Numbered from the stretch's first letter, positions 35,469 through 57,311 are shown. The stretch is 64,000 bases of DNA from an uncultured Pseudanabaenaceae cyanobacterium (GCA_937949725.1 CALECT010000048.1:6626-70625), one strand, 5' to 3'. Notes: a model not told the origin generated them from the letters alone. Made by a program: numbers and translations.

Positions 35469-36028
35469 GTTTAATTTTCAGAAGAAATGGATCAATAAGA
35501 AGTTGTCTTTAACTCAAAATATCTATCTTCAGCTAGCTGACAGAATCGCATTCTTTACCTTTGAAGTCGTCACCTAATGAACCCAAAACTTTGATTTTGA
35601 GAGAAAAGACACCCACATATTAAATGGGAGTCGGCTGGGTACTGGTCTGCTTCGTGGGGAGGATTTGCAATATCCGATGCTTAGTAAGGATTTCAGGGAC
35701 TTCTGCTTTAAAAGCTGCTAACCCTTGGCTGGACAAGGCTTTCATTCAAGCATCCCCTACTTTCCAGACCAGTGCAGTCGGCTAGAACAGCAGCCTTCCG
35801 ATTAGTCCTTACCGGTAAAGATATTTGTACAATAGATATCGATCATGAGTGAACTCCCTATCTTGATGCTAATAAGTAGAGAAGTGGAATGGATACAAAA
35901 GTCACAAAAATAAAAAAACAGACCTCTTATCAGAGCTCGAGAAATTCCATTAACTTAGACAAAGATTCAATCTTGTCCAGGGCTAATTCACTTTCAAAAG
36001 ACATAAACTGCAACCCTCATCCGATATC

Positions 36029-37903
36029 ATGTTTGCATTGAGAAAAATAATTGTTCTTGTTACAGTTTTGCTTTTCTTGTTACCTCATGGCTTGGCTTAC
36101 GCAGACGCTGGCTTGATGTCAAGTACGCCAGATAAGTGTAAATTAGTTAGCCCTTCTCAAATGAGGCCCGAGCTAACTCAAGCTATCCAGGATTTCTTTG
36201 AAGCTGAGAATTCCTTTAACTTTGACGCAAAAGTTGGCCGAGAGTGGAAGCTTCTCAAAATTGACAAAATTCTTAATGACTCTGTATCAGCGGCTGTTAC
36301 AGAGATCGGAGTTGATACGAAGTGGCAAGATAAATTCATGAGTAGCTGGAACTCTGGAAAAGCAGAGCAGCTGGCAGCCCAAGTGATATCTCAAACCTTT
36401 GATAATCCTGACCTAAAGCGTTCATTGCAGCGTCTCGCAAACAATGTTGGTAGGCAGGTGGCTGATGAGATAGAGCTGGCAACAGTGCAATCCTCGTCTT
36501 ACGGAATGCAATGCTTGCAAACATTTATTGGAGATCAATACTCAACCACATTCCTGGATCTCTTTAATCAAAAAGCAGAAGAGTCTGCACAGCAGGGATC
36601 AGTTGATTTCTCTGCATCCTTTACTCCGGAGAGTAAAAAATACTTGTTATCTCGCAATGTAGCTGCTGTTGGAATTGGCACCTTCATTATTGGGAGAATC
36701 ACTAGAGAGGTAACCAAGAAATTTGCTGAACGCGTAATAGGTCAAGTAGGCAAAAGGTTACTGGGCAGGCTGGGAGCAGGGGCTATTCCTTTCGTTGGCG
36801 AAATCGTAGGTGTTGGTTTACTAGCAGCAGACGTTGCCCAGAGCTTTTCGGGGTCCTTTGAAGAAATTGAGACTCAGCTAAAGTCTCCTAATGTCAAAAA
36901 TTCTCTGCGTCAATCTATTTCAGATGTTTTACAAGATGAAATTGGTGGACAATCCTCTCAAATTGCATCAGAGATTTCAAACGAACTCTACGCAGAATGG
37001 TTGGATTTTCAGAAGGATTATCGCGAAACCCTTAATCTAGCCAGTGAGATACCTGAGTTCAAGCAGCTCCTAACAGAAGAAGGAGATATGCCCAAGGTGA
37101 CATCTTTGGTCGGTATTGCCCTAAATAATATGGGGCGCCGTAAGCTGATTGATGCTATCCAGGATGGAAGCTTTGCTCAAGCTCTGAACCTACCCATCAT
37201 TGCTCGACCAATCATTCAATACACTGGCAGTATTCAAGAGGCTGTATCTTGGTCAAAGATATCTGGCAATTTTCTTGAACGTGTTGTAGATCTAGAGATC
37301 TACAAACATTTATCTTTGGAAGGTTTAGAACATCGCTTACTGGTAGACCTCCTAGCTTTAGAAGATGCTGATGCCATCTCCAAGATGTCATTGTTGCAAA
37401 ACTCGGAAATTCAACAACTCCTAGCCATATCTAGTCCAAACTTAATTCCTCTAGCAAAGGTCGTATCTGCGCAGGATCTCCAAAGGCTTTCAGGCTACAT
37501 AGAACAGTTAGATAAGTCAGAAACTAATGATTTGATCAGATTTTTACTCGATGACAGTAAGAGCACGATTAAAAATACAGATGTAATGACACATATTGTT
37601 CAGAGTGGCAACATAAGTCGCGCAACGAAGTTTTGGCAAAGGCAGACAAGTCCTTTAAGCCTTGCATTCAGCCTCTGGCCTATTGCCATGGGGGAAATTT
37701 CATGGAGATTAGCATGGGTTAAATACGGTAGTACTTTTCTTGGTGAAGCCTTTGTGGCCATTGCCGTTGCGCTGTCATTAACCTTAGGGCTTGGCTTTAA
37801 GCTTTATGGAAGCATCTTAGATGTGAAGTACAAACAAGCGAAGCTCGCTGGTGTTCCGCAAGATACCGAAGTACAAGATTCTGACGAAAACAATGTTGAT
37901 TAG
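36029..37903 (+). CDS. large signal-peptide / C-terminal TM protein of unknown function (paralog A, AT-rich copy)
   Basis: 624 aa with signal peptide [25 protein letters not shown] and C-terminal TM helices. It aligns along its whole length with the product of 54958-56841. Shared blocks include [11 protein letters not shown](S/A)SYGM(Q/S)CLQTFI, SFSGSF(E/S)EIE(T/S)QL(K/Q)SP, W(L)[10 protein letters not shown] and VGIAL(N/D)NMGRR. Confidence 0.8.
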
Positions 37904-38213
37904 CCTTGATCACGCCCCAGATTCATCAATGGAAATTGGTGAACTGCTTACTGTAGTCACGATTCGAGCAGCAAACGTTGTTAAAGATATTCGTGAAAAT
38001 ATTAAGAATCTGACAGGAGGTCGCCTGACTCATTATGAACAGTTAATTAGTCAATCCGTTGATAATGCCTTGAGTGAATTAGAGCAAAAAGCACTGACAA
38101 AAGGTTACGACGGTGTGATAGGCGTCAAAATAGCCAATCCCTCTGTTGTCGAAGGAGGTGTGGAAATCATTGTTTACGGCAATGGCTTTAGGAAAAGAGT
38201 ATCTGAGCAATGA
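37893..38213 (+). CDS. YbjQ-family (UPF0145/DUF74) protein (paralog A)
   Basis: [10 protein letters not shown]...[35 protein letters not shown]...[29 protein letters not shown]. The ATG at 37893 overlaps the upstream stop (37901-37903) by 11 nt, suggesting translational coupling. The track ORF start at 37851 lies inside the upstream gene. Confidence 0.85.
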
Positions 38214-38350
38214 GATGTCCTCCAATCCCAATTACCCTCAAGCTTGCAGCATTTGATTCGCAGAGGCCTGTCCTTACTCACAGGTCGCTTCCAGAAAACC
38301 GCTGTACCATTAAGAAGAAGCACTACACCGCTAGTTTTAGCTAGACAACC

Positions 38351-38590
38351 ATGGAAGCACTCGCCCTAACCAACGAAAATGTCGAAACCGTCCTCGACGA
38401 ACTCCGCCCTTACCTCATGGCCGACGGTGGCAACGTCGAGCTAGTCGAAATCGACGGCCCCATCGTTAAAGTCCGCCTCCAAGGCGCTTGCGGCTCTTGC
38501 CCCAGCTCTGCCATGACCCTGAAGATGGGCATTGAGCGTAAGCTGCGCCAAATGATTCCTGAAATTGCTGAGATTGAGCAGGTTCTCTAG
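38351..38590 (+). CDS. NifU C-terminal-domain (Nfu-type) iron-sulfur cluster assembly protein
   Basis: 79 aa with [45 protein letters not shown], including the CxxC motif. Confidence 0.9.
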
Positions 38591-38619
38591 ACAGAGCTTC
38601 ACTGAAAGTCATTTGAAAA

Positions 38620-38656
38620 GCGTGGGTTGGCAAGGGTTGCCGACCCACGCTTTTTG
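38620..38656 (+). terminator. Rho-independent terminator after the nfu-type gene
   Basis: Stem gcgtgggt (38620-38627) pairs with acccacgc (38643-38650), followed by ttttt (38651-38655). Confidence 0.75.
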
Positions 38657-38766
38657 GTATTCGAATAAGCTTTTCCCATTGAAGCGATTTCTTCCCCAAG
38701 CCGCAGCCAGAGCGGGTATGCTGGTTTACTGGAGTTTCCAATCCATCGGCCCCATCCGAGATCTGA

Positions 38767-40053
<1,287 letters not shown>

Positions 40054-40195
40054 GTGTCAAGCTTGGCACTGGTGGATCTTGGCCAGCTCCTCCCCATAGC
40101 GAGGATTTGGGGAGGCGCGCCAATGGTTATGTCTGCGCATTCCCACCCCAGGGCCTAAAATGTGTAGATAACTTAACGAACGAGTCCCAACACCT

Positions 40196-41293
40196 ATGTC
40201 CGTTCTGGCAGCCATCGGCGTCCTAGCCCTTTTGATCTTCGTCCATGAATTGGGCCATTTCCTCGCCGCTCGGCTCCAGGGGATCTATGCCAATAAGTTC
40301 TCCATCGGTTTTGGTCCTGCGCTACTGAGCTACCAAGGACCGATGACGGAGTATGCGCTGCGGGCGATTCCCCTAGGCGGCTATGTGGGCTTTCCAGAGG
40401 ATGACCCGGAGAGTGGCATTGAGCCCACGGATCCCAACCTGTTGCAGAACCGGCCTATTTTGGACCGGGCGATCGTGATCAGTGCAGGCGTCATTGCCAA
40501 TCTGGTGTTTGCCTATGCCATTTTGGTGGCGCAATCCACCATTGTAGGTTTGCCCCAGGGGTACGATCTCAAGCCCGGTGTGTTGATTCCCCAAGTGGTG
40601 GATAACAGCTCAGCGGCAACGGCGGCGGGGATTAAAGCTGGTGATGTGGTGCTCAAGGCAGACTCCAAGGTTTTTGATGCTTCGGAGAGCTCCGTGCAGG
40701 AGCTGATTGCCATTATTAAGTCCAGCGCCGAGAAGCCGGTTTCCTTGACCGTTGAGCGTGGCGAAAACATCGTCGATCTCACGGTGACGCCCAGGACTGG
40801 GGCGGATGGAAATGGACTGATTGGCGTCCAGCTAGAACCCAACGGTAGCCCCATCTTTCGTCGCCCCAATAGCTTCGCTGAGCCATTTCGGGCGGGCGCT
40901 AGACAGTTTGAATTTTTGGGACGCCAGATTGTTGATGGTTTTCGTCAGCTGGTGACCGACTTTACCAACGTTGCACCTCAGCTCAAGGGGCCTGTAAAGA
41001 TCGTTGAGTTTGGGGCCGATATTGCAAAGTCTGATTCAGGCAACCTGTATTTCTTTGCTGCATTCATTAGCATTAACTTGGCTTTCATCAATATCTTGCC
41101 TCTCCCTGCGCTAGACGGTGGTCAGCTTGCCTTCTTGCTATTTGAAGCGATACGCGGCAAGCCCTTGCCTCAGAAGTTTCAAGATGTGGTGATGCAGTCT
41201 GGATTGATGCTGTTGTTGGGCCTAGGGGTGTTCTTGATTATCAAGGATACGACCCAACTCAATTTTGTTAGGCAGTTCTTTTCCCAGTCGTAG
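40196..41293 (+). CDS. rseP: RIP (site-2) zinc metalloprotease RseP
   Basis: HELGHFLAAR (HExxH) in the first TM segment, a central PDZ (AAGIKAGDVV), and C-terminal NILPLPALDGG. Confidence 0.9.
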   Translation: MSVLAAIGVLALLIFVHELGHFLAARLQGIYANKFSIGFGPALLSYQGPMTEYALRAIPLGGYVGFPEDDPESGIEPTDPNLLQNRPILDRAIVISAGVIANLVFAYAILVAQSTIVGLPQGYDLKPGVLIPQVVDNSSAATAAGIKAGDVVLKADSKVFDASESSVQELIAIIKSSAEKPVSLTVERGENIVDLTVTPRTGADGNGLIGVQLEPNGSPIFRRPNSFAEPFRAGARQFEFLGRQIVDGFRQLVTDFTNVAPQLKGPVKIVEFGADIAKSDSGNLYFFAAFISINLAFINILPLPALDGGQLAFLLFEAIRGKPLPQKFQDVVMQSGLMLLLGLGVFLIIKDTTQLNFVRQFFSQS

Positions 41294-41430
41294 TCGTTTC
41301 TGGGTTGATAGTTGCTGAGTGAACTGTGCTTCGTTGGGACAATGTTTGAGTGCTGAAGCTTAGGGGTGGACGGTGGTTCGCCCCTCTTTTGTGTCTAGCT
41401 TGTTGTTGAGTGCTTCTTTGGGTGAGATCT

Positions 41431-42177
41431 ATGGCTGCGTCAAAGCAATCTTCTTCAAACAAGGTGTCAGCGATCGCCAAGAAAGGCGGTAAAACGTCTG
41501 CAAAGCCTCGCAAAGGGCGGGTCACCCAAAAACAACTGCGCGCTTTAGCCATCCTGGAAGAACTCAAGCGACTCTATCCTGAAGCACCTTGCTCCTTGGA
41601 TTTTGAGAACCCGTTACAGCTAATGATTGCCACGATGCTGGCGGCTCAATGTACGGATGAGCGAGTTAACAAGGTGACGCCAGCTCTGTTTGAGCGCTAT
41701 CCCGATGTGGAGGCTTTTGCGGGGGCAGAGTTGGAGGAGCTGGAGAAATATGTGAAGTCCACAGGCTTCTATCGAAATAAGGCCAAGAACATTCGTCTCA
41801 ACTGCCAGCGCTTAATCGAGGTCTATGGCGGGGAGGTGCCCCAGACCATGGAGGATTTGGTTTCCCTGGCCGGTGTTGCTCGCAAAACGGCCAATGTGGT
41901 GCTGGCCCATGGCTTTGGAATTAACGGTGGTGTGACGGTGGATACCCATGTAAAGCGGATTACAAATCTGCTGAAGCTGACGAAGTCGGATAATCCGGTG
42001 CAGATTGAGCGAGACTTGATGAAGCTGTTGCCCCAGCCCGATTGGGAGAATTGGTCGATTCGGTTGGTGTATCACGGGCGGGCGGTTTGTGTGGCGCGGC
42101 GACCGGACTGCGATCGCTGCACGCTAATTGAGCATTGCCCCTCAGGCCCCAAGATTTTGGCCGGCAAAAAGCCCTAG
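41431..42177 (+). CDS. nth: endonuclease III
   Basis: HhH motif LVSLAGVARKTANVVL, catalytic-region DTHV, and Fe-S cluster CVARRPDCDRCTLIEHC. ATG 41431 (MAASKQ) is preferred over the track start at 41410. Confidence 0.9.
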   Translation: MAASKQSSSNKVSAIAKKGGKTSAKPRKGRVTQKQLRALAILEELKRLYPEAPCSLDFENPLQLMIATMLAAQCTDERVNKVTPALFERYPDVEAFAGAELEELEKYVKSTGFYRNKAKNIRLNCQRLIEVYGGEVPQTMEDLVSLAGVARKTANVVLAHGFGINGGVTVDTHVKRITNLLKLTKSDNPVQIERDLMKLLPQPDWENWSIRLVYHGRAVCVARRPDCDRCTLIEHCPSGPKILAGKKP

Positions 42178-42243
42178 GAGCTGTGAAGTGAAACCTAGGG
42201 CTTTTGGAGTTTAGGTTGGAATAGAAGGAGCTGTTATATCGAC

Positions 42244-42456
42244 CTAACTAGCTGTGGCGAGGCTAGAGTGATGAACGAGCTGTTTTGCAGAGACTAGAGC
42301 ATTAGAAACATTAGGCTGGATGGGTTCAGCAATTTCAAATTTGCAGCTTAGGGAAACGAGGGGCATTTCTTGCCAACAGCTGCGGCAGAACCAATGAATT
42401 TCGCCGCTACGAATGCGACGTAGTAATTGATCTTCACAGCAAGGACATTGGCCCAT
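42244..42456 (-). CDS. small zinc-ribbon protein (hypothetical)
   Basis: MGQCPCCEDQLLRRIRSGEIHWFCRSCWQEMP carries two CxxC pairs. Start ATG 42456 is chosen; the track ORF extends to 42570. Confidence 0.4.
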   Translation of the reverse strand: MGQCPCCEDQLLRRIRSGEIHWFCRSCWQEMPLVSLSCKFEIAEPIQPNVSNALVSAKQLVHHSSLATAS

Positions 42457-42789
42457 GGGCTTTTCTCCAGTATTGAGACGTGATCCCCGATGGGATCTCT
42501 CCATATCTGGATGGTAGTCGTCTAATTTCTTCTTGTACGGAATTGGGCAAGGGATGTTAAGAAAAGACAATCAAGCACATACTTCGTTTCACACTTTCGA
42601 ACAAAGGAAAAAAGAAAGTAAAGTTTTCTGGAAATTGTGCGTCTTTCTGTTATTCACATCGCTGAGTTGGGAATCTATCTTTGAGCTGGGGATCACCTAC
42701 TACAAAAGGCTCTCAGCCAAATCTCGCAATAGACTACGACGAGCAAAAAAGAACGATTCTAAGCTCGGATGTAACCAGAAACTTATAAT

Positions 42790-43533
42790 TCATTCCATCC
42801 AATAGGGCACTTGATAATGGCCTTTTTTTAGCTCTGCTTTGAGGGTCTCATAGCGGGACTCATGGCGGCTGACAAGGTTCCAGAATTCAGGAGAGTGGTT
42901 GAAGTGGATGGTGTGGCAGAGCTCGTGGACGAGGACGTAGCGGACGATCGCGGGGCGCAGAAAGAGCAGTTTGCTGTTGAGACTGATGCTGTGCTTACTG
43001 GAACAGCTGCCCCAGCGGGTTTTGGGCGATCTAATGGTGACGCGGGTATAGTCGAGGCCGACTTGATCGCTGATGCGGGCGAGCCAAGGAGAAAGCTGCT
43101 GTTTGGCAGTTTGAACCAGCCACTGCTTAAGGGCTAGGCGGCACAGTTCCCAGTCGTCAGTGGCACCGATGAGTACGAGCTGACAATTGGGATGGACAAT
43201 GTATCGGATGCCTTGGGCAGCAGTGGGGCGATAGCTGACCTGCCAGATTTGGTCTAGGGCGGCCAGGTCAACGCTATCGGGGAAGGGACTCACTAGGGTG
43301 GGATCGGCTTCGGATTGACGCAGGGCCATTTTGCGCTGGACCCGGTCAATCCAGCTTTGCTTTTTGGCGAGGATGCTGGGGATGTGGCTACAGTCGAAGC
43401 CTTTGGGGACGATAACTTCTAGCTGACCTTGGGCTGATACACGCAGGGAGACATGTTTGGCCCTTGCGCTCTCCCGCACGGCGTAGTCAGGGGTTTGAGT
43501 TGAGCCTGTGAGGGGAGCTTGGGACATTCGCAA
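42790..43533 (-). CDS. YgjP-like M48/DUF45 metal-dependent hydrolase
   Basis: YVLVHELCHTIHFNHSPEFW (HExxH plus a downstream His/Glu), which is typical DUF45. Confidence 0.8.
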   Translation of the reverse strand: MRMSQAPLTGSTQTPDYAVRESARAKHVSLRVSAQGQLEVIVPKGFDCSHIPSILAKKQSWIDRVQRKMALRQSEADPTLVSPFPDSVDLAALDQIWQVSYRPTAAQGIRYIVHPNCQLVLIGATDDWELCRLALKQWLVQTAKQQLSPWLARISDQVGLDYTRVTIRSPKTRWGSCSSKHSISLNSKLLFLRPAIVRYVLVHELCHTIHFNHSPEFWNLVSRHESRYETLKAELKKGHYQVPYWME

Positions 43534-43691
43534 GGGCGCTGCTGCCTGGAGAGACGGGGAGCGATGGATATGAGGCTTATACTAGCTCGATCCTAGCGAG
43601 ATTCCTGCTGGCTTGTCTAGGCTGAAATCTTCTGCAAGAAAGGCTGGTTGGGAGAGTTGCGCATTTCTTGCAGGAGGTGGGCCAATTGGCC

Positions 43692-45218
43692 TTAGCCCAG
43701 CAGTTGTTGCCACATGGTCATGACATCCCAGCGAGACTGGCTGGTGTTTTCTTCGTGGCGTTTCCAGAAGTCGGACCACCAGCCGGGGGGCTGATCTTTG
43801 GGGCCATCGTATTCGGTGGGGCGGTTGGTGTTGCCGCCGGTGACGAGGCTACCAACGTAGTCGGCATCGCTGTAGACCTGGGCAATTTGGTCGTTGATTT
43901 CGCGCATGTCGGCTTCGGAGACGACGCCGTTGCTGGTGGCTTTGTAGAACTGGACGGTGGCGCGGATGGGGAAGTTGGGGTCGCGTTCAATGGCGAGGTT
44001 ATCAATCTCAGTGAAGGGGCCTTCAACTTCGCCATGGCCAATAACGGCGGCTTCGACGTCGCTGCGTTCAAGCTTGGCTGATTCTTCCATGGGAGCTGAT
44101 GCCGATGGCATGGCCAGCATGTCGTTTTCCATGGCTCCACCCCAGAGTTGGCGAGGCTGCTCTTTTTGTTTGAGGGGGACTTGAATCATGACGACCATAT
44201 TGAGGCCATCTTTTTCGGTGGCGGCGGGCTGGTCTTCGCCACCGTTGCCCCGTCCATCGCCGTAGCGGTTGTAGTCGCTGAGGCGCTGGCCGGTGAAGCT
44301 GGCCCGCTCTCCATCCTTATTGAAAAATAAGCGTTGTCCCCAGCTCTGCCCGGCTTCAAAGCCATCGCGGGTGTTGTCGATGATGGTCATGCTGGTGCCT
44401 TCACGGGTGGCCATGATGGTGAGCACGGCGGGGTTTTCTTGGTAGGACTGGTAGTTGAAGAGGACGGGGTTGAAGGTGGCGTCGCCTGCTTGGGGGATGG
44501 GCAGGAATGCGGCTTGGGCGCTGGTGAGGACGTGGCTATCGCGGGGGGCGAGGAGGGAGTTGCGGCGGCCTTTCCAGGAGTCGGGTTCGTGGAGGTAGCT
44601 GCGCAGGTCGCCGAGGAGTTCTTTGAGGGAGACGCGCTCTAGGTCGTCGCCTTTTTCGTTGCCGACGAGGACGAAGAATTTGTCGAGGTCAATGTCGGCG
44701 GTTTCGTCGGAGAAGTTGGGTTTGCGAATGACGGGCATGAGGCTGAGGTTGTATTGCCCTGTTTCGGGGTTGCGCTGTTGGACTTGGATGGTCATGTCGC
44801 TGATGTTGGGGCCGACGGAGGAGTTTTTGTAGCGGCCGGTGTCTTCCCAGGTGACGTTGAGGATGTCGAGGCCGAAGTTGTCGGCGAGGCGTTGGGCAGC
44901 GCTGTTGCTGACCATGGATGCGGTTTTTTGGATGACGTTGGCGTAGCGGCGGTGGTTGGCGATGGCGAGGCGTTGTTCTGCGATTTCGACTTCGAGGACG
45001 TCGGTTGGCTTGTTGGCAGGATTTTGGGGTTCCACGCTTTCTGCCGCTGTGGTGTTCTCTTCGCTGTCGCTGACGATGCCCCAGCCTTGAGCGATTTGTG
45101 CATCAGCTTTCACGGGGCTGAGGGCCTGGCTGGGTGAGGAGAAGGCGGGGAGGAGGCTGAGGCCGAGGGCAAGGGCAAACCAGCGAGGAGCAGATGGAGA
45201 AGTCATGGCCAATTCCAA
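43692..45218 (-). CDS. secreted hypothetical protein
   Basis: 508 aa with signal peptide (M)TSPSAPRWFALALGLSLLPAFSSPSQA. I recognise no motif. The coding strand is C+A-rich, and many overlapping track ORFs here are artefacts. Confidence 0.6.
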   Translation of the reverse strand: MELAMTSPSAPRWFALALGLSLLPAFSSPSQALSPVKADAQIAQGWGIVSDSEENTTAAESVEPQNPANKPTDVLEVEIAEQRLAIANHRRYANVIQKTASMVSNSAAQRLADNFGLDILNVTWEDTGRYKNSSVGPNISDMTIQVQQRNPETGQYNLSLMPVIRKPNFSDETADIDLDKFFVLVGNEKGDDLERVSLKELLGDLRSYLHEPDSWKGRRNSLLAPRDSHVLTSAQAAFLPIPQAGDATFNPVLFNYQSYQENPAVLTIMATREGTSMTIIDNTRDGFEAGQSWGQRLFFNKDGERASFTGQRLSDYNRYGDGRGNGGEDQPAATEKDGLNMVVMIQVPLKQKEQPRQLWGGAMENDMLAMPSASAPMEESAKLERSDVEAAVIGHGEVEGPFTEIDNLAIERDPNFPIRATVQFYKATSNGVVSEADMREINDQIAQVYSDADYVGSLVTGGNTNRPTEYDGPKDQPPGWWSDFWKRHEENTSQSRWDVMTMWQQLLG

Positions 45219-45416
45219 TTCAATGGTAGCTTCAATGTATGTGGAGAAATACTGATGAGATGGCAGGTTTCGTTTTTTGAAACCGGGTATGGATATCCCA
45301 TCTGGACCAAACTCTCTCTGGGCTCTGGTTCATGTGACGTTTCCGCATTTGGCTCAGAGAGTAGGTCATTCTTCCTGGGAATATCGCTAGGATGAGGGTG
45401 ACGGTTTTGACTGAGC

Positions 45417-48400: not shown

Positions 48401-50003
48401 ACAATACGTCATCCTCAAACCCGCCTGGGTCACCAACGCCGTCTATCAAGTCACCGACTACCCCAAAGTCAAAAACGACATGGGTCGCTTCAGCCAAGAT
48501 GATCTCGAAGACATCTGGAGCGACAGCGAATACGCAGAGTTGCGGGAAGAACTGCTTAGCCTGATGCAGATGCGAAAATTCAGCATCTGCTACCCCCTCA
48601 AAGACCGCCCCGACACCTACATCGTCCCCAGCCTGCTCTCCCATCAGCGTCCAACCTACGAATGGGACTACCAGCAAAACCTGATCCTGCGCTACGAATA
48701 CGGCTTTATGCCCAAGGGCATCATTCCCCGGCTCGTCGTCGAAATGCATCGCTACATTGAAGACAGCCCTCGCCCAGAATCGCCAGAGGAACAGGCAGAA
48801 AAAATTGGCCTCGTCTGGAAAACGGGCGTTATCCTACGCGATGGCGACGCCCGCGCCCAGGTCGTCGAAACCTACGACAGACGCGAAATCACCATTCACG
48901 TTTCAGGCCATCAGCGTAAGCAACTGCTCTACTACATCCGCTACGAACTGCGACAAATCCACGACACCTATCCCAACCTGGACTACCAAGAATTTATTCC
49001 CTGCAACTGCGAACAGTGCGACGGTTCCGAGCACCCCTACACCTACCGTCTCAGCGACCTAGAACGTCGCCTCACGAACCAACGCTACGAAGTGGAATGC
49101 GAGAAAAGCTACGACATGGTCAGCGTCCAGCGCTTAATCAGTGACGTCATCATTGAGCCAGAATTGCAGCGCGATCACTGGGGCTTGGAGAATGATGCAG
49201 GGTTTTCCGACATCAACATCAGCATCAACCAATCTAGCGATGATCACCGCGACCTGAGCAAAACCTTCAACCAAACCAACAGCGGCGGCACCAACTTTCA
49301 AAACAACATCAGCGGTGGCAAAGTCAACCAAGCTAAAGCAATCAACCTCAACCCCAACGCATCAGCAGATGCCCATACACCCAACGCCGACGCCCGCACC
49401 ATCCTTTTCCTCGCCTCCAACCCCAAACAAACCGGCAGACTCCGCCTCGACCAAGAACTGCGCGAACTCGACGAAAGCCTCCGCCGCGCCCAACGCCGCA
49501 GCCAATTCAAACTCGAAAACAAAGGTGCCATCCGCACCCGTGACTTCACCCGCGCCCTCCTCGACATCAACCCCCACATCGTCCACTTCTCCGGCCACGG
49601 CAAAGACAGCACCGCCTCCAACGACAGCCGCCCCCCCGAGTCAGAACACCAACCTCTTCAAGGACTCCTCTTCGAAGACGAAACCGGCAACCCCCAACTC
49701 GTCAGTGGCGAACAACTCGCCGATGTCTTCGAACTCTTCGCCGACCAAGTCGAATGCGTCCTAATCAACGCCTGCCACTCCCACAACCAGGCCGACGCCA
49801 TCGCCCAACATATCCCCTACGTCATCGGCATGAACCGCCCCATCTCCGACAAAGGCGCGATTGAATTTGCCATTGCCTTCTACGACGCCATCGGCGCAGG
49901 CCGCGACATCCCCTTCGCCTTCAAACTCGCCCGCACCCAACTCACCCACCGGGGCGAAAAAGACATCCCTCAGTTGTGGAGCAATAGTTCCAGCGCATCC
50001 TAA
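45417..50003 (+). CDS. ROCO protein: LRR array + Roc GTPase + COR + C-terminal caspase/CHAT-like domain
   Basis: 1528 aa. About 26 LRRs span 45747-47543. The Roc domain has G1 LLIVGEGETGKTTLAKKL (about 47709-47737), G3 VWDFGGQE and a degenerate G4 (VKNEKQ). The COR-like region has RWVRIRNVLENYDRNYIDLAEYLTLC...LHELGICLHFQ. The C-terminal domain (from about 49401) has a His-Cys dyad: IVHFSGHG (His 49596-49598) and VLINACHS (Cys 49773-49775). The start is ambiguous (TTG 45417, GTG 45426 or GTG 45435). Confidence 0.85.
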   Translation: MAGVAVVGEQVDTGREQALRLIEQAAAEGWTELDLSEMDLVELPTEIVNLTQLEVLILGRKKQKTPEEQITELVFDFLFSLLPPIIETLRSLQADFSKTQLSEVPESIAQLSNLRVLDLRGTQISELPESITQLSNLQVLNLGSSQISELPESITQLSNLQVLNLDSTQISELPESITQLSNLQVLNLGSTQISELPESITQLRNLQVLYLDSTQISELLESITQLSNLQVLNLGSTQISKLPESITQLSNLQALNLDSIQISELPESITQLSNLQVLNLDSIQISELPESITQLSNLQVLNLDSTQISKLPESITQLSNLQVLNLDSTQISELPGSITQLSNLQVLDLSSTQISELPGSITQLSNLQVLDLSSTQISELPESITQLSNLQVLYLGSTQISELPESITQLSNLQVLNLGSTQISKLPESITQLSNLQALNLDSTQISELPESITQLTSLQSLNLSGTKISELPESITQLTSLQSLDLSGTKISELPESITQLTSLQSLDLSGTKISELPESVTQLSSLQSLNLSGTKISELPESIIQLTSLLQSLYLSGTKISELPESVTQLSSLQSLNLNSTQISELPESVTQLSSLQSFNLSGTKISELPDSVTQLSSLQSLNLMQTQISVFPEIVTQLPSLQELDLDGTAISKLSDSISQLTNLTSLDIRNTQISELPQSITQLSGLQSLYLMSCRISQLPNWWKTWSTPASIGLSGNPLPIPEALLSSTDPDSLQAIINFYFQTQDPEAKPLYEAKLLIVGEGETGKTTLAKKLQDRDYKLKLIDSDNPEKSTEGIDIIQWQFDQADGTPFRVNVWDFGGQEVYHATHQFFLTKRSLYALVVDNRRENPNFYYWLNVVRLLSDNSPVFIVKNEKQNRQCEINEGQLRAEFKSLINQTICVNFAENRGLDELETMIKTQMVQLPEVQQPWPPRWVRIRNVLENYDRNYIDLAEYLTLCNTNGVPDKIEALQISAQLHELGICLHFQKEPGLKQYVILKPAWVTNAVYQVTDYPKVKNDMGRFSQDDLEDIWSDSEYAELREELLSLMQMRKFSICYPLKDRPDTYIVPSLLSHQRPTYEWDYQQNLILRYEYGFMPKGIIPRLVVEMHRYIEDSPRPESPEEQAEKIGLVWKTGVILRDGDARAQVVETYDRREITIHVSGHQRKQLLYYIRYELRQIHDTYPNLDYQEFIPCNCEQCDGSEHPYTYRLSDLERRLTNQRYEVECEKSYDMVSVQRLISDVIIEPELQRDHWGLENDAGFSDINISINQSSDDHRDLSKTFNQTNSGGTNFQNNISGGKVNQAKAINLNPNASADAHTPNADARTILFLASNPKQTGRLRLDQELRELDESLRRAQRRSQFKLENKGAIRTRDFTRALLDINPHIVHFSGHGKDSTASNDSRPPESEHQPLQGLLFEDETGNPQLVSGEQLADVFELFADQVECVLINACHSHNQADAIAQHIPYVIGMNRPISDKGAIEFAIAFYDAIGAGRDIPFAFKLARTQLTHRGEKDIPQLWSNSSSAS
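45747..47543 (+). repeat. in-frame 69-bp tandem repeat array (26 units) encoding 23-aa LRRs
   Basis: Units 1-15 (45747-46781) encode LSNLQVLNL(G/D/S)STQISELPESITQ with very high nucleotide identity. Units 16-22 (46782-47336) form a second subfamily, L(T/S)SLQSLNLSGTKISELPES(I/V)TQ. One unit is 72 bp (LTSLLQSLYL). Units 23-26 are more diverged. Confidence 0.95.
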
Positions 50004-50658
50004 TTGGGCTCAGTCGCTGACAGAGGCTGACTATAACAACTCCAAAAACAGTCATCAGTCCCCCTCGTTTGAGTCATCTGATTGAATATCTTGGCCAGCC
50101 TGAGCCCCCTCGCTCTCGGCATTGGCCTGCACCTGAAAGCCAGTGGCATCGCCGGCGTTTTGCTGTCCAAAGGAAGGGGTTAACTTCACACCCATTAAGG
50201 TAAACCCCAGCACTTCGATCCGCGTAGCGATAGCCCCACAGATCAAACCAGCCCAGAGAAATGCTAGGCACCCCCAATACGCACCATCCCAGAATCTATG
50301 GACCGCTAGGTTGGGAGGGGGGAATCTATAGGGGGAAGCAGTCGGCCCCCTTTGGCGGGCCAGAAAACAACTGCGGAGGGCTGGCCCTCATGGATTTGAG
50401 GCTGTTGGCTTTGAGGCTGCCTGGATTTGAGGTCGTTGGCTTTATCGCAGTGAGACAGAGTTTCCAAACGGTTCAAACAAAACCTACCCGTTATTCCCCA
50501 CATTGCCAATCCTCCGCAAAAACGCGGCATTTTCCTCTGGACGATGCTCTGTTTTACTTCCTGGGAATCTTAAATCTACTGGGTCACTCTATCTATATGC
50601 GGCTTCACCGCCAACCAAATCTCGGCTTTACCGCCTGCCAATATTTCCTTTGTTCCCT

Positions 50659-52305
50659 ATGCAACTCTCTCTCTCGGTTTGGCAGCAACTGCGCCGTCGT
50701 GAACTCTCCTGTCAAGCTGCATTGTCGCTGCTCGTGGATGAAGCGGGGGACGTGAGCTTGCCATTGCTGGATGGGGAGGTGAGTCAACGTTTCTTTCGGG
50801 AGTTTCAGCAGCCTCAGCTACTGCCGCCGCTCTTGCCCCTGTTGCTTTGGCAAAACTGCTATTACGTGGGCTCGCCAGTGACGTTGGATGAGCCAGTGCT
50901 GGCTGGGCTGCGCGCAAGCCTGCTGACTGAACTGCGTATTATTCCAATCAATGAGAAGAGCTATCGCACTTGGTTTCACAGCCAGAATGCAGACCCCAGT
51001 GGTATTAGTGCTGAACCGTTGGTGAATCCCATTACGGGAGAGACGGAACAGGAGGATATTGGTGAGGTTACGGAGCTATATTTAGCCCAGGCTGCGGACC
51101 AGATGGGGCGGCTGAATACGATTATTTCCGGAGCTTTGCGTAATCGGGCGAGTGATATTCATTTGGAACCGGGGCTGGATGGGCTGCGGGTGCGTTATCG
51201 CATTGACGGGGTTCTGCGGGACATTACAACACTGCCGCGAGAGCTGAATCGCCGCGTGATTGCGGCGCTGAAGGTGATGGCAGAAATGGATATTTCCGAG
51301 AGTCGGCGGCCCCAGGATGGTCGCATTGGTCAGCAGTACAGTAGCCAAACTGAGGCTCCGGTGGGGCTGGATATGCGGGTGAGTACTTTGCCCTGTATGG
51401 GCGGTGAGAAGGCGGTGATTCGGTTGCTGCCCCAACAAAATCCGTTTGAGTCTTTAGAAGATTTAGGCTTTGAGCCAGAGCCTCTGGAAATTTTTCAAGG
51501 TTGGCTGTCTCAGCCCCAGGGCATGGTGGTGCTGACGGGGCCAACGGGGTCGGGGAAGACGAGTACGCTGTATACGAGCTTGCAGGCGATCGCCCAGGAA
51601 TCGGTCAACGTCGTCACCGTAGAAGATCCTGTCGAATACGTTCTACCTCGCATCACCCAAACCCAGGTCCAAGAAAAAGCCGGCATGACCTTCTCGGCTG
51701 GCCTACGAGCAATTCTGCGCCAAGACCCCGATGTGATTATGGTGGGGGAGATTCGCGATGAGGCGACGGCAGAGACGGCGGTGCGGGCGGCTCTAACAGG
51801 ACATCTTGTACTGACAACTTTGCATACGAATGATGCGGTGAGTACGATTCCTCGGTTGAAGGATGTGGGGCCAGATCCGGGCTTGCTGAGTGATGCGCTG
51901 TTGGGGATTGTGGGGCAGCGGCTGGTGCGGCGGGTTTGCCCCCATTGTGCAACGCCTTATATGCCGACAGAGCGGGAATTGCGATCGCTCCATTTATCCC
52001 CCAAGGATGCCAATCTAAGCCAGTGGCGTAAGGGGCGGGGATGCCACCGCTGTTTTTATTCAGGGTATTTGGGACGGGAGGCGATCGTGGAACTGCTGGA
52101 TGTGGATGATGCGGTGCGGCGCTTGATCTATAAGGGAGATCAAGAAGCCTTGCAGGATCACCTCTTGAAAATTGGCTTTTACTCGTTCAGGGAATCGGCA
52201 CTGATGAAAGTTTGCCAAGGCAAGACGACTTCGGAGGAGGTGCTGCGGGCTTTGCCTCGTAGTGCATTGGAGCAGCCTCAGGTCATCGAGGCTTCACCCG
52301 CTTAA
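50659..52305 (+). CDS. GspE/PilB-family secretion ATPase
   Basis: Walker A LTGPTGSGKTSTLYTSL, Asp box DPDVIMVGEIRD, His box GHLVLTTLHTNDA, and a tetra-Cys motif CPHC...CHRC. ATG 50659 is preferred over the track start at 50503. Confidence 0.85.
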   Translation: MQLSLSVWQQLRRRELSCQAALSLLVDEAGDVSLPLLDGEVSQRFFREFQQPQLLPPLLPLLLWQNCYYVGSPVTLDEPVLAGLRASLLTELRIIPINEKSYRTWFHSQNADPSGISAEPLVNPITGETEQEDIGEVTELYLAQAADQMGRLNTIISGALRNRASDIHLEPGLDGLRVRYRIDGVLRDITTLPRELNRRVIAALKVMAEMDISESRRPQDGRIGQQYSSQTEAPVGLDMRVSTLPCMGGEKAVIRLLPQQNPFESLEDLGFEPEPLEIFQGWLSQPQGMVVLTGPTGSGKTSTLYTSLQAIAQESVNVVTVEDPVEYVLPRITQTQVQEKAGMTFSAGLRAILRQDPDVIMVGEIRDEATAETAVRAALTGHLVLTTLHTNDAVSTIPRLKDVGPDPGLLSDALLGIVGQRLVRRVCPHCATPYMPTERELRSLHLSPKDANLSQWRKGRGCHRCFYSGYLGREAIVELLDVDDAVRRLIYKGDQEALQDHLLKIGFYSFRESALMKVCQGKTTSEEVLRALPRSALEQPQVIEASPA

Positions 52306-52729
52306 GGGACTTCCAAGGAATAAAGCATCCGCAGTCAAACCGTTCCAACAGAGCTGCATTCAACTCTTGCCAGTTTGGCTTCGCTTGGCTGCTGTGAGCT
52401 AAAGTTCACAGCTCAAAGCTCAAGTCCGTTAAAACGGACTGAAAATCCCTAGGCGCTTGGATTTCAGCCCACTTTAGTGGGCTTTCGCTCTTAGCCTGAG
52501 GATTGATCCCCAGGCGTTTCGGCGAGGAATTCCAATCGCTATCAGACCAAGGTTGGGATGCTTTATTTCTGGGACCTCCCTAATTTGCCTTTTACAACAA
52601 CTTTCATGGGATTGGCTTGTCCGACTTCTGAGGTGGAGATTGTGAACAAATATGCCAACTGCGTTGCATCGCTCCGGTGCCGAAACCAAGCTAAGTAGAG
52701 GTTAATTCCAGAACGGAGAGCTTGTCAGC

Positions 52730-54223
52730 ATGGCTAAGAAGAAAGGGAAAAAGCGAGCATCCAAGTCTTCTTCTGGTCAAAGCCGCTCTGGTGGTGGTTT
52801 TGGCACTAAGCAAAACTTTGAGCAAGAGATCAATAAAGTTAAGCGACTGCTGAGCCGAGCGGAAGATCAAGCTGTTCTCGATTATCTCCAAGAATTGACC
52901 CAGCGTTATCCCGGCCAAGCCGAGCTGCTAGAGCTTCAGATGACGATCGCCGCAGAGCTTCAGGAAGGGCTCACCTGCGGCAAAGCAGCTGCGCAGCTGC
53001 TGGAGCTAGATCCCAACCATGGCGATGGCCTCTACATTATGGCCAGCATGGCATTGCAGAAAATCCATCCCGTCTTGGCCTGGCATTTGAGCCAGCGAGC
53101 CCTGGCCCAGGATGACGAACACCCAATGACTGAAGGGATTCTGGCAGTGATGGGGAAGATTGAAGAAGGCCTGGATGAACTGGTGGCTGAGGTTGAGGGC
53201 CTGCCTCGGGAGGAGGCCATTGAACTCCTGATTAACCATGAGTGGGGGCAGTTGTATCTGGGCTGGGGGGAGTATGAGAAATGCAAGGCTGCAGAACTCA
53301 GGGTCATTGCCCAAAAGCCTGACTTTATGCCCGCTTACAACAACCTCAGCTTAATTGCCCTGACAACTGGGGATGTGGAGGAGGCAATCGTCCAGGCCGA
53401 AAAAGTCCTTAGCTTCGAGCCCGAGAATGTTCATGCCCTCGCCAATCTCATCCGCTATTGCTTTCTACAGGGCCAGCCGGAGCAGGCCCAACCGTTTGGT
53501 GAGCAGCTTAAAGCCAGCCAGGCTGATGCTTGGGACCCTTACACCAAGAAGATTGAAGGCTTGACTTATTTGGGCGATACGGCGGGCGTTTTGGAGATTT
53601 GGCAGCAGGCTGAGGCTGCGGGAGAAGCTTCCTCTGATTTATTGGGAGGTGTGGTTTTCCATTGGGTCGCCGTGGCCCAGGCGAGAATGGGGAATCTCAC
53701 AGTGGCGAAACAACTCTGGAGAGAAGCGCTGAAGCGATCGCCAGATCTAAAGCTGGCCCAGGCAAATTTGGATGACTTGCTTCTACCGCTGGGCCAACGC
53801 AATGGGCCATGGGAGTTTGAAGGTCACGATTGGATGTCTCCACCGCTGCAAACGGGCCTTCTGGAGATCCTGTCGTCTCTGAGCAAAAATAGTGATGACC
53901 CCCGCTTTTTGCCTAAAGCATTTCATCGGCTTTGCGCAGACTATCCAGGCTTGACGACCTGGCTCGAAACGATGCTCACGCGAGGGGATTTGTTTGGGCG
54001 GCAGATGGCAGTGGAGTTGATTAAAGAGGTGCGATCTCCTGAGCTTTTAGACATCCTCAAATCGTTTGCCCTTAGCGCCCATGGTCCTGATCGTTTGCGT
54101 AATCAAGTGGCAGAATTCTTGGTGGAAGAAGATGTGCTGACGTCGGGAAATATTCCTATGTGGTCTAATGGGGAGCAAACAAATGTGGCTCTGTCGGAAT
54201 TTTCAAATGCATGCAGCGTGTGA
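52730..54223 (+). CDS. TPR-like helical-repeat protein (hypothetical)
   Basis: 497 aa. It has a Lys/Ser-rich N-terminus followed by TPR-like helical pairs (AELRVIAQKPDFMPAYNNLSLIAL, AIVQAEKVLSFEPENVHALANL). Confidence 0.6.
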   Translation: MAKKKGKKRASKSSSGQSRSGGGFGTKQNFEQEINKVKRLLSRAEDQAVLDYLQELTQRYPGQAELLELQMTIAAELQEGLTCGKAAAQLLELDPNHGDGLYIMASMALQKIHPVLAWHLSQRALAQDDEHPMTEGILAVMGKIEEGLDELVAEVEGLPREEAIELLINHEWGQLYLGWGEYEKCKAAELRVIAQKPDFMPAYNNLSLIALTTGDVEEAIVQAEKVLSFEPENVHALANLIRYCFLQGQPEQAQPFGEQLKASQADAWDPYTKKIEGLTYLGDTAGVLEIWQQAEAAGEASSDLLGGVVFHWVAVAQARMGNLTVAKQLWREALKRSPDLKLAQANLDDLLLPLGQRNGPWEFEGHDWMSPPLQTGLLEILSSLSKNSDDPRFLPKAFHRLCADYPGLTTWLETMLTRGDLFGRQMAVELIKEVRSPELLDILKSFALSAHGPDRLRNQVAEFLVEEDVLTSGNIPMWSNGEQTNVALSEFSNACSV

Positions 54224-54230
54224 GTTCACG

Positions 54231-54563
54231 TTAGGTGGATGAGTTTGGGCTGGGCCGATTGCGCTTGAAGCCGTTGCCGTAGACGATGATTTCGACGCCG
54301 CCTTCGACAACTGATGGGTTGGCGATTTTGACGCCGATGACGCCGTCGTAGCCTTTGGTTTTGGCTTTTTGTTCGAGTTCTTTGAGGGCGTCGTCGAGGG
54401 CGGTGCTGATGAGTTGTTCGTAGTGGACCATGCGTCCGCCGGTGAGGTTTTTGAGGTTTTCGCGGATGTCGTTGACGACGTTGGCGGCGCGGATGATGAC
54501 GACGGTGAGGAGTTCGCCGATTTCTAGGTTGGGGTCGGGGGAGTGGTCGAGGCTGATGAGCAT
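54231..54563 (-). CDS. YbjQ-family (UPF0145/DUF74) protein (paralog B)
   Basis: [51 protein letters not shown]...[29 protein letters not shown] is highly similar to 37893-38213. Start ATG 54563; the track extension to 54710 runs through a dispersed repeat. Confidence 0.85.
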
Positions 54564-54957
54564 AGTGAGCGGTGCCTTGGCTGTTGAGTGCTTGGCTTGG
54601 TTCCCCGCTCCTTTAGGAGAGGGGCTAGGGGAGAGGATGTCTTGTCTCTTGTTGGTTTGGGTTTGAGCTTGGCTTGTCCGAGCCGCAAATCCGTGGGGAA
54701 CTCTCCCCACACCCCAGCCGTAGGGACGGAAGGCCGTCCCTGACGGGTCACCCTCGCTAATGTTTGGGTTGCTTCACCTAAAGATTACTTGGCGTTTGAC
54801 CAACTGAGGAACGTTCAAATTTAAAGGACTATGCGGGAGCGGATTGGGTCTTTACCAAATGCTTGACGCCAACAGATCAACTGCTCCTCCCATTTTCCAA
54901 GGGGAGGCTGGGAGGGGTGGATTTCGATTCCGGCTAGCTGATGGTCTAAGCTTCATC

Positions 54958-56841
54958 TCAGTCTTTAGGCTCGATGGTGTTTTTGCTTGCTCTGAGTTGA
55001 GCAAGCTTCTGGCGGATGGTGAGGATTTGGCGGTAGAACCAGAGACCGATCGCCAACAACAGCAACAAGCCCCCTACAATCCCTGCGCCCAGTAATCCAA
55101 TGGACAACCCACCATATTTGGTCAGGACGAGTTGCCAGGCGATCGCCCCTACAGCAACTGGCATAGCACTCTTCAACAAGTCCACAACACTCGACGGTTG
55201 CTGCCAAAACTGTATCGCAGCGTTGATGTCTTGGCTTTGGACGATGTGGGTCATAGCTTCGGCGTTTTTGATGGTGGCGGAGCCGTTGTCGAGGAGGTAT
55301 TTGATCAGGTCGTTGGCGTCACTTTGTTGGAGGTCGGTGATGTAGCCGGAGAGGCGTTGGAGATCTTGGGCGGTGACGTGGGTGGTGAGTTGGATGAGGT
55401 TGGGGGTGGCGATGGTGAGCAGTCTGCGAATGTCGCTGTTGTTGAGCAGGGATAGTTTGGCGATCGCAGTGGCATCATCCAGGCTGAGGATGTCTAGCAG
55501 TAGTGAACGATCCAATCCATCGCGGGATAGATGCTTATACAGCTCTAGCTCGACGACTTGATTAATCTGGTTTCCGGCTAGCTCGCTCCAGGCGACGGCT
55601 TCGGGGATGCTGCCGGTGGTTTTGATGATGTCGCGGCTGCTGGGGGGTAGGGTGAGAGCCTGGGCAAAGCTGCCGTCTTGGATGGCGGCGATGAGGTTGC
55701 GGCGGCCCATGTTGTCGAGGGCGATGCCGACGAGGGCGGTGATGCTGGCTAGGTCAGTTGTGTCACCAAGTAGGGCTTGGAATTCGGGAAGGTCTTCGGC
55801 GAGGGTGAGGGTTTCGCGGTAGTCCTTTTGGAAGTCGAGCCAGTTGGCGTAGAGGTCGGTGGCGATTTCGCGGGCGATTTGGGGGGATTCGCCGCCGATG
55901 TCCTGTTCGATGCTGTTGCTAATGGCGTTGCGGAGGGTTTGCTTGACGATGGGGGATTGCAGTTGGCTTTCGATTTCGCTGAAGGAACCGGAGAAGCTTT
56001 GGGCCAGGTCGGAGACGATGAGGGCGCCGCCGAGGATTTCGCCGACGAGGGGCAGGGCAGTGGTGCCGAGGCGACCGAGGACTCTGCCGCTAAGTTGGGA
56101 GAAGACGCGTTTGGCCATGCCTCGGGTGACGCGGCGGGTGATTTGGGCGATCGCAATACTGGTAACGCCGCCTGCTGCCAGGCCGTAGGAGCTGATGTAT
56201 TTGCGGCTTTCGGGGGAGAAGCTGGTGATGATGTCGGCGGCGCTGGCTTCGGCGGTGGCGTCGGTGCGTTGGTCGAAGCGGTCGAGGAAGGTTTGGGAAT
56301 ATTGGCCGCTGATAAAGGTTTGCAGGCAGCTCATGCCGTAGGAGGCGGATTGAACGGTGGCGAGTTCGATTTCATCGGCGAGCTGTTGGCTGACGTTGTC
56401 GGCGAGTTTTTGCAGGGCGGTTTGGAGGGTGGGGTCGTTGAAGGTGGCGGTGGTGATGCGATCGCCCAGTTCCTCTGCTTTGCTGGGGCTCCAACTGCTG
56501 GCGAATTTGTCGAGGAGTTTGGTGTCGCCTTGGAGGGTGGCGACGGCTTGGCTAGCGGCGTTGTCAATCTTGCTGTCGAGGTTGAGGAGTTGCCATTGGC
56601 GATTGACTTGGGCCTGGAAATCAAAGTGGGTTTCGTTGTCGAAGAAGCCCTGGATGGTGCGGGTGAGTTCGGGGCGCAGTTCGGCTTCGCTGATGGCTTG
56701 GCATTGCTCTGGGGTGATGCTGCTGCTCTGACCGGTCTCTGGGCTGGTGAGGACGGCGGCGTAGGCGAGGCTGGGCTGGAGCCAGAGACTTAGGGCCAGG
56801 AGAAAGGCGATGAGCTTTTGGCCAGGGAGAGGCAGCAACAT
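54958..56841 (-). CDS. large signal-peptide / C-terminal TM protein of unknown function (paralog B, GC-rich copy)
   Basis: 627 aa. It has a signal peptide (LIAFLLALSLWLQPSLAYA) and a C-terminal TM segment (LSIGLLGAGIVGGLLLLLAIGLWFY). Collinear with 36029-37903. The many overlapping track ORFs on both strands are skew artefacts. Confidence 0.8.
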   Translation of the reverse strand: MLLPLPGQKLIAFLLALSLWLQPSLAYAAVLTSPETGQSSSITPEQCQAISEAELRPELTRTIQGFFDNETHFDFQAQVNRQWQLLNLDSKIDNAASQAVATLQGDTKLLDKFASSWSPSKAEELGDRITTATFNDPTLQTALQKLADNVSQQLADEIELATVQSASYGMSCLQTFISGQYSQTFLDRFDQRTDATAEASAADIITSFSPESRKYISSYGLAAGGVTSIAIAQITRRVTRGMAKRVFSQLSGRVLGRLGTTALPLVGEILGGALIVSDLAQSFSGSFSEIESQLQSPIVKQTLRNAISNSIEQDIGGESPQIAREIATDLYANWLDFQKDYRETLTLAEDLPEFQALLGDTTDLASITALVGIALDNMGRRNLIAAIQDGSFAQALTLPPSSRDIIKTTGSIPEAVAWSELAGNQINQVVELELYKHLSRDGLDRSLLLDILSLDDATAIAKLSLLNNSDIRRLLTIATPNLIQLTTHVTAQDLQRLSGYITDLQQSDANDLIKYLLDNGSATIKNAEAMTHIVQSQDINAAIQFWQQPSSVVDLLKSAMPVAVGAIAWQLVLTKYGGLSIGLLGAGIVGGLLLLLAIGLWFYRQILTIRQKLAQLRASKNTIEPKD

Positions 56842-57008
56842 TAGCGATGGAGCAGTGTTGATAGCAGAGGTTGGGATGGGCGCTAGGGCTTAGACAGCGC
56901 TTAGCCTCTAGGCTTTACCACTATGGCAGAGTCGTGATTATTTTTGCTGGAGGCGATGGAGAAGTTGATGATGTCTCAATTCGTTATGCTAGGGCTAGTA
57001 CGTGAGGC

Positions 57009-57311
57009 ATGATCATGACTCCCCGAGAACAGTTAATTCAGGAGGTGTTGCAGGCACCCGATTCTTTGGTGAGTGCTTTGCTGAAGTTACTGCGTTTGGT
57101 CAGTGCTGGACAGGTTGGCATTGCTCATCGGTTGGCTCAGCTTGTTGAGAGCTTTGATGAATCGGCTTCTGTTGAGGATGATCGTGCTCCAGCCTTGATT
57201 TATAAAGATGGTGCTTTGGTTGTCGGTGGGGAGTTATCTGAGAATTTGGATGTGAACCAGTTCATCTCCGATTTGCGTGAGGAACGTATTCAAGAGCAGA
57301 TGGGGCTGTGA
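57009..57311 (+). CDS. putative antitoxin of a VapBC-type pair
   Basis: 100-aa ORF whose stop overlaps the downstream PIN gene start by 4 nt (GTGA at 57308-57311). Confidence 0.6.
   Translation: MIMTPREQLIQEVLQAPDSLVSALLKLLRLVSAGQVGIAHRLAQLVESFDESASVEDDRAPALIYKDGALVVGGELSENLDVNQFISDLREERIQEQMGL

Follow-up and report, generated by a model that had tools for sequence, protein, structure and literature searches.

A resident and a probable xenologous copy of a large protein–YbjQ gene pair in an uncultured Pseudanabaenaceae cyanobacterium

We analysed a 64,000-nt stretch of DNA (hereafter, the window) from an uncultured marine cyanobacterium of the Pseudanabaenaceae (GCA_937949725.1, contig CALECT010000048.1, 6626–70625), which contains two inverted copies of a two-gene module encoding a large protein and a small protein of the YbjQ family. 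Copy B is the vertically inherited, resident copy of the lineage, while copy A is most probably a xenolog, carried on an AT-rich island of approximately 4.4 kb (island 3) that would have come from a cyanobacterial gene pool. The genome is a metagenome-assembled genome (MAG) of 5.24 Mb in 237 contigs, 88% complete, with a GC content of 52.3% and a median GC content at third codon positions (GC3) of 0.59. Coordinates are those of the whole window, the plus strand is the strand given, and the open reading frames (ORFs) were listed and translated by a program.

Copy A lies on the plus strand, with the large gene at 36029–37903 (a 624-aa ORF, from its translation) and the YbjQ gene at 37893–38213 (106 aa counted from the ATG at 37893; Pfam YbjQ_1). 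As the large gene ends with a stop codon at 37903, downstream of this ATG, the two genes overlap by 11 nt. Copy B lies on the minus strand, with the large gene, the resident orthologue, at 54958–56841 (a 627-aa ORF) and the YbjQ gene at 54231–54563 (110 aa counted from the ATG at 54563; Pfam YbjQ_1), separated by a 394-nt spacer on the same strand (54564–54957) that contains native dispersed repeat elements. The ORF listing and translation bear out the position and inverted arrangement of the two modules given in a preliminary description of this DNA, made from the sequence alone; the distance between them, which had been put at about 16.7 kb, was measured as 16.0 kb (38214–54230). Both YbjQ proteins matched the Pfam family YbjQ_1 (PF01906) above its gathering score of 23 bits, with 59 bits (E = 8.1e-16) for copy A and 57.3 bits (E = 2.6e-15) for copy B.

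BLASTP gave 52% identity for the two large proteins (620 aligned residues, E = 0) and 83% for the two YbjQ proteins (102 residues), close to the earlier estimate of roughly 80% for the YbjQ pair and a lower value for the large pair. Pairwise protein and codon alignments showed full-length, collinear homology, so that a similarity confined to short motifs is excluded. In the codon alignments, identity at third positions was 28.5% for the large genes and 31% for the YbjQ genes; the synonymous distance (dS) was not computable, the synonymous sites being saturated, and the nonsynonymous distance (dN) was 0.42 for the large genes and 0.18 for the YbjQ genes. Copies A and B are long-diverged homologues of a single conserved unit of two genes.

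Island 3 and the origin of copy A

The first search for relatives, based on a word index, gave 21 relatives, the nearest labelled as uncultured 'Pseudanabaenaceae' MAGs and the farther ones including a Rivularia MAG. As a measure of species divergence, the serS product is 97% identical to that of this genome in G001 and 92% in G003, both of the same genus, and 77% in G005, of the sister genus. G001 provides an empty site for the island. Its contig L027 carries dnaA, a tetratricopeptide repeat (TPR) gene, a spacer of 196 bp, nfu, serS and rseP on one contig, and positions 32832–33883 of the window align with L027 5449–6498, while positions 38280–38589 align with L027 6694–7004. Homology to G001 ends near 33885–33905 and resumes at about 38276–38280. 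Approximately 4.4 kb in this genome (island 3, 33885–38279) thus corresponds to 196 unrelated bp in G001, between the TPR gene, whose product is 87% identical to its G001 orthologue, and nfu (38351–38590, plus strand; a small NifU-like protein, 100% identical to that of G001), the native gene next to the island on its right side. Among the relatives, the island is absent at this TPR/nfu site of G001, and copy B is present in G001, in G005 and in the genome encoding the large protein P0007 (contig L007).

The composition of the island differs from that of its host. Island 3 has a GC content of 0.42–0.45, with an AT-rich core at approximately 34600–38279. The GC content of the large and YbjQ genes is 0.43 and 0.41 in copy A vs 0.59 and 0.57 in copy B, GC3 is 0.38 and 0.33 vs 0.74 and 0.78, and the frequency of C at third positions is 0.18 and 0.18 vs 0.62 and 0.75. 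The genome has 2735 ORFs of 200 aa or longer; ranked by GC3, copy A is among the lowest 4.4% of them and copy B among the top 1.4%. These values agree with the overlapping, AT-rich genes of copy A and the GC-rich copy B of the preliminary description; its remark that copy B favours codons ending in C or A also stands, since C and A together make up 78% of third positions in the large gene and 95% in the YbjQ gene. The HIP1 octamer (GCGATCGC), the signature oligonucleotide of the host, occurs at 49 sites in the window, compared with one expected by chance, at a density of about 0.8 per kb. The copy B large gene has four sites and its L007 and G005 orthologues have five each, while no site was present from 34215 to 38897 (about 4.7 kb), and hence none in copy A or in the core of the island.

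In a tree of 23 rows, copy B, P0007 and the G001 and G005 proteins formed the expected clade, and copy A and the G003 protein P0006 formed separate long branches. In a second tree, rooted on the tandem-type systems of other bacteria, copy A was the sister of P0006 (SH-aLRT 92), and the pair lay inside a clade of 10 rows with 100% support, which also included the B-type lineage. In the approximately unbiased (AU) test, a placement of copy A together with the genus-level clade of copy B was rejected (p = 0.0104), but its placement with P0006 was not (p = 0.41). A within-genus duplication, by which both copies would be recent in-paralogs, is rejected by this test; together with the low third-position identity and the undefined dS, the result upholds the earlier view that the duplication is not recent. 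The grouping of copy A with distant taxa, for which a phylogeny had been proposed as a check, was not found: the source of copy A is an old sister lineage, nested with copy B in one cyanobacterial clade, and not a distant taxon.

The G003 module (L004/L008) resembles copy A in layout and composition. Its two genes overlap as in copy A, its base composition is nearly the same (GC 0.43; GC3 0.39; A 0.29, C 0.19, G 0.19 and T 0.33 at third positions), and no HIP1 site was found in it. Its large protein is 55–56% identical to copy A and to copy B alike (55% for copy A vs P0006), despite the 92% identity of serS. This cassette forms an insert of 3.1 kb between a lipoprotein gene and nfi, with HIP1-rich flanks of 57–62% GC, while in this genome the lipoprotein gene and nfi are only 40 nt apart (G000 contig C28, 46164–47276). 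A-type cassettes therefore occupy different intergenic sites in two congeners.

Taken together, the empty site in G001, the lack of HIP1 and the AU test identify copy A as the copy brought in with island 3, in line with the preliminary proposal that one of the two was a xenolog. Copy A would have entered as a unit, with both overlapping genes, between the TPR gene and the promoter of nfu, and the same lower-GC pool would have supplied the sister cassette of G003 at its different site. The donor is an unsampled, lower-GC cyanobacterial gene pool. As for polarity, the difference from G001 would reflect insertion here rather than deletion there, and, because mobility genes are absent, the insertion probably took place by DNA uptake and recombination in the intergenic region. 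The horizontal gain of a xenologous second copy is a routine evolutionary event; the present case in a marine cyanobacterial MAG is a clean and well-controlled one, in that HIP1 density, GC3, the empty site, the gene neighbourhood and the AU test agree. Like genomic islands in general, island 3 shows atypical GC content, a missing host signature oligonucleotide, an empty site at the orthologous position of a close relative and tree incongruence. It differs from them in its size of only about 4.4 kb, in having no mobility machinery and in duplicating a function that the host already encodes.

Several observations weigh against a foreign origin of copy A. Among mobility signatures, no integrase, no direct or inverted terminal repeats of the island and no tRNA in the window were found. 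The polarity has no outgroup anchor, since nfu is not beside serS in G005 and G006; the region upstream of nfu in G003 is rearranged, and a deletion in G001 is formally conceivable. All of the related genomes are incomplete MAGs (62–93% complete). No candidate donor protein more than 57% identical to copy A was found in 5.8 billion clustered proteins or in 1.84 billion representatives, and copy A and P0006 are themselves so far apart that their source pool must be old. The YbjQ proteins, 79–83% identical across all lineages, provide no resolution.

The strongest of the alternatives is an ancient duplication within the lineage, predating the genus, after which G001 deleted copy A, the AT-richness being due to local mutation bias or relaxed selection. 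It would account for the position of copy A within the same 10-row clade as copy B, for the lack of mobility genes and target-site repeats at the island and for the unanchored polarity of the difference from G001, and the composition of this genome is strongly regional. However, long residence should have brought HIP1 sites and a host-like GC3, whereas copy A lacks HIP1 and its GC3 is 0.38, and every B-type gene has four to five HIP1 sites per full-length gene. In addition, the sister copy in G003 is a clean insert of the same foreign composition at a different locus, the identity of copy A and P0006 is far below that of the host serS, and the island also holds an unrelated AT-rich ORF. We therefore regard an in-lineage duplication as unlikely.

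An artefact of assembly or binning, in which the AT-rich segment is a chimeric join within a MAG contig, is very unlikely. The genome is in many contigs and incomplete, and in one of two marine metagenome runs, X2, sequencing depth was 11 exactly across the island vs 130–230 on the flanks. However, both flanks are collinear with a single G001 contig, and two Logan contigs made by an independent assembler, one of 6976 nt from X1 and one of 4548 nt from X2, cross both island junctions without differences. The step in depth suggests that more abundant, co-occurring relatives share only the flanks, which accounts for it. A polymorphism of the island in the source samples is suggested by this depth step in X2 alone; the 196-bp spacer specific to G001 was not present in runs X1–X3. 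No RNA runs with copy A were found.

Besides copy A, the island contains two features. At its GC-rich left edge is the remnant of an Uma2-family (PF05685) gene (34249–34497, plus strand; Pfam E = 6.2e-15, profile positions 88–146 of 172), around which the reading frames are broken. A second truncated Uma2 gene lies at 59062–59412, at the left edge of another AT-rich island; this gene and the remnant share 43% identity, and in each only the C-terminal half of the Uma2 profile is represented. The AT-rich ORF of 263 aa (34677–35468, minus strand; GC3 0.45) is divergent from copy A. It gave no significant Pfam match, and its assignment to EcsC (PF12787) was rejected (12.2 bits, E = 0.14, against a gathering score of 30.4 bits). 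The lysine-rich, repetitive C-terminus of the ORF closes on a Gly-rich hydrophobic motif (G-W-IP-IIGG), which resembles both the C-terminus of EcsC and a segment inside the large proteins. Residues 158–236 of the ORF partially matched the phage-defence candidate PDC-S30 of PADLOC (E = 3.1e-9).

Copy B and its regional codon usage

Copy B is the resident copy because it belongs to a clade of orthologues, carries HIP1 sites, keeps a conserved neighbourhood and has native repeats in its spacer. Its large protein is 94% identical to P0007, 92% to the partial G001 sequence and 66% to that of G005, and the G001 and G005 values run parallel to those of serS; its YbjQ protein is 95% identical to the L007 orthologue. 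The gene order on L007 (large gene, YbjQ, TPR, T2SSE, a 507-aa ORF, YgjP and nth) is the order at copy B, without the ROCO gene described below.

The spacer was originally described as filled with repeats, and these proved to be dispersed genomic repeats; a tandem array was not found. An element of about 130 nt (spacer positions 150–280; about 54678–54807 in the window) has at least 15 other copies in the genome with 76–90% identity, and an element of about 50 nt (spacer positions 305–368; about 54590–54652) has more than 30 copies (blastn). Both families resemble miniature inverted-repeat transposable elements (MITE) or repetitive extragenic palindromic (REP) elements. In G005 the orthologous spacer is 110 nt long, compared with approximately 355–360 nt in G001 and L007.

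The codon usage of copy B is shared with its surroundings. Silent sites of the plus strand are G-rich over 41410–59052, with the exception of the ROCO gene: the minus-strand neighbours of copy B (YgjP and a 508-aa ORF) are equally rich in C at third positions, and its plus-strand neighbours (T2SSE, TPR, nth and DUF4058) are rich in G and T. Genome-wide, the GC3 skew of neighbouring genes on opposite strands gave a correlation of r = −0.42 when computed on the coding strand; computed on the plus strand, r was +0.39. The copy B orthologues in L007 and G001 use the same codon dialect, while copy A is low in GC and almost free of skew. These results indicate that third-position GC skew belongs to multi-gene blocks of a DNA strand, not to single genes. 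Because the neighbours on both strands share it, the C-ending codon usage of copy B is a regional DNA-strand skew, and neither a property of the gene nor a sign of foreign origin. A strand-block GC3 skew of such strength is unusual in a cyanobacterium. The skew of single genes reaches +0.83 (the DUF4058 gene, 58261–59052); dnaA (31049–32491) is close by.

The reverse assignment, with copy B acquired and copy A native, draws on the likewise extreme composition of copy B, whose large gene has a GC3 of 0.74 and a third-position C of 0.62. We consider it highly improbable in view of the skew common to neighbours on both strands, the HIP1 sites and native dispersed repeats, the gene order kept in L007, and the identities to G001, G005 and P0007, which follow species divergence. 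Least probable of all is that the inverted pair, with its collinear proteins, provides arms for recombination by which the intervening 16-kb block would be inverted: nucleotide identity is 54% for the large genes and 67% for the YbjQ genes with a longest identical run of 11 nt, which is well below the needs of RecA-dependent recombination, the block in L007 has the same orientation relative to copy B, and no strand-switching joints were seen in the contigs examined; a DNA identity too low for such inversion had already been proposed in the preliminary description.

The immediate surroundings of copy B vary between genomes. The TPR gene beside its YbjQ gene (52730–54223) encodes 497 aa here vs 701 aa in L007, which also carries an extra 252-aa gene after YbjQ; upstream of copy B (57009–57742), a VapBC-like pair (a 100-aa protein and a PIN-domain protein) stands where L007 has its HNH gene. 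Copy B is thus variable on both flanks. A frequent neighbour of the module in other cyanobacteria, though not here, is rpiA, with which it is convergent in G005 and in three distant cyanobacteria (L003/L032 and L034–L036); in this genome rpiA lies on another contig (C161), and therefore the genus has relocated its resident module.

The module family and predicted protein features

Both copies of the large protein align end to end with 17 other members of the family, and all 58 invariant columns of this 19-sequence alignment are kept by copy A. The family profile gave two matches in this genome (E = 1.6e-280 and 3.3e-265), and in a profile search 470 representatives were found at 50% clustering, of which 251 reached E ≤ 1e-30, a larger family than the word-index search had indicated. 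Among 401 sampled cyanobacterial species, the family was present in two, including this genome (E ≤ 1e-20). A YbjQ gene lies directly downstream on the same strand in both copies of the window, in all nine related loci first examined, and in L038, L039 and L041; none was seen within the short contig of L040. With the three-gene form described below included, the genes of the module overlap or abut, and hmmsearch showed full-length homology of the large proteins (E = 1e-77 to 1e-151). A conserved third gene was rejected: the 252-aa gene of L007 is unrelated to the 263-aa ORF of the island, and no third gene is kept across loci. In one cyanobacterial MAG (L035, 5947–7761), the large gene is broken up into ORFs of 342, 86 and 157 aa, and its counterpart is intact in a 93%-identical Rivularia locus (L036); the L035 gene is either a pseudogene or the result of assembly errors.

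A three-gene form, with the order large1–YbjQ–large2, was found at L041 (5001–9142) and L038 (206–4446), in contexts that look non-cyanobacterial (GC 0.53–0.62), with ilvBNC-leuA upstream and a GATase_2 (gltB-like) gene downstream. Both of its large genes are members of the family and represent two paralogues in separate clades, and their YbjQ proteins are still 63% identical; among the loci of non-cyanobacterial appearance as a whole, the value is 60–63%. In contrast, each module at the cyanobacterial loci contains a single large gene, and the second large gene in this genome is not in tandem; it belongs to a separate, imported module with its own YbjQ gene, 16 kb away and inverted.

The window YbjQ proteins resemble the family YbjQ/UPF0145/DUF74 (PF01906) in their length of about 105 aa, in matching nearly the whole domain and in having no signal peptide. 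They differ as a specialized subgroup encoded directly downstream of a large, helical membrane protein. Solved members of the YbjQ family assemble as pentamers. No functional study or mechanism was found in the literature on YbjQ, DUF74 or UPF0145. The large protein matched no family of Pfam, NCBIfam, PADLOC or PHROGs; its only library match, to MusI in the transmembrane region, was far below threshold and was rejected. Ten distant members of the family likewise gave no Pfam family, apart from spurious weak matches on a 2212-aa repeat form. Searches of the PDB gave no match by sequence profile, and none at E ≤ 0.001 by Foldseek with the AlphaFold2 model. The gene pair itself is a conserved system of moderate interest. 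The large protein and its dedicated YbjQ protein form an uncurated system, which gives the YbjQ family a recurrent partner, and the natural pair of modules in one cell, with 52% and 83% identity, provides material for tests of partner specificity.

The AlphaFold2 model of the copy B large protein is entirely helical (mean predicted local distance difference test score, pLDDT, 79; predicted template modelling score, pTM, 0.57). The sequence predicts a signal peptide, for which AYA would be the cleavage motif, and a hairpin at about residues 215–280 in which a basic segment lies between two hydrophobic ones, together with a second helical domain followed by a putative C-terminal transmembrane helix and a basic tail. 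Copy A is likewise predicted to be all-helical, with the signal peptide, the hairpin and the C-terminal helix. The N-terminal domain contains two invariant cysteines, C47 and C172, suggesting an extracytoplasmic location. As a working model, the two proteins may form a membrane complex in which the large protein spans the membrane three times, its two helical domains lying on the periplasmic or lumenal side. The basic loop or tail of the large protein would be bound in the cytoplasm by an oligomer of YbjQ, which would thereby be coupled to the helical domains. It counts against this model that its basis consists of sequence features and a predicted structure of that pTM, without a structural match.

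It is conceivable, although rather unlikely, that the pair is a self-contained, exchangeable cassette, and that the acquired copy A adds to an envelope complex either a second subunit, not interchangeable with the first, or a specificity variant. Diverged AT-rich versions would then have inserted independently at different intergenic sites in two congeners, without mobility genes; other bacteria would normally use two paralogous large subunits around one YbjQ protein; and the complex might be under diversifying selection, for example through phage or surface recognition. The companion ORF on the island, as described above, partially matches a candidate defence family.

The block between the two copies

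The native block between nfu and copy B (38770–54223) contains serS, rseP, nth, YgjP (minus strand), the 508-aa ORF (minus strand), a ROCO-CHAT gene, a T2SSE ATPase gene and the TPR gene, as identified with Pfam. Thus, nfu, serS, rseP, nth and the ROCO gene are located between the copies as originally described, together with YgjP, the 508-aa ORF, the T2SSE ATPase and TPR genes. The ROCO gene (45417–50003; LRR-Roc-COR-CHAT) is missing from the otherwise syntenic L007, and it is the only gene in the 41–59 kb block with a C-rich plus strand (GC3 skew −0.36). No HIP1 site was present around it, from 42118 to 51585. The ROCO gene looks like a separate insertion or an arrival in inverted orientation.

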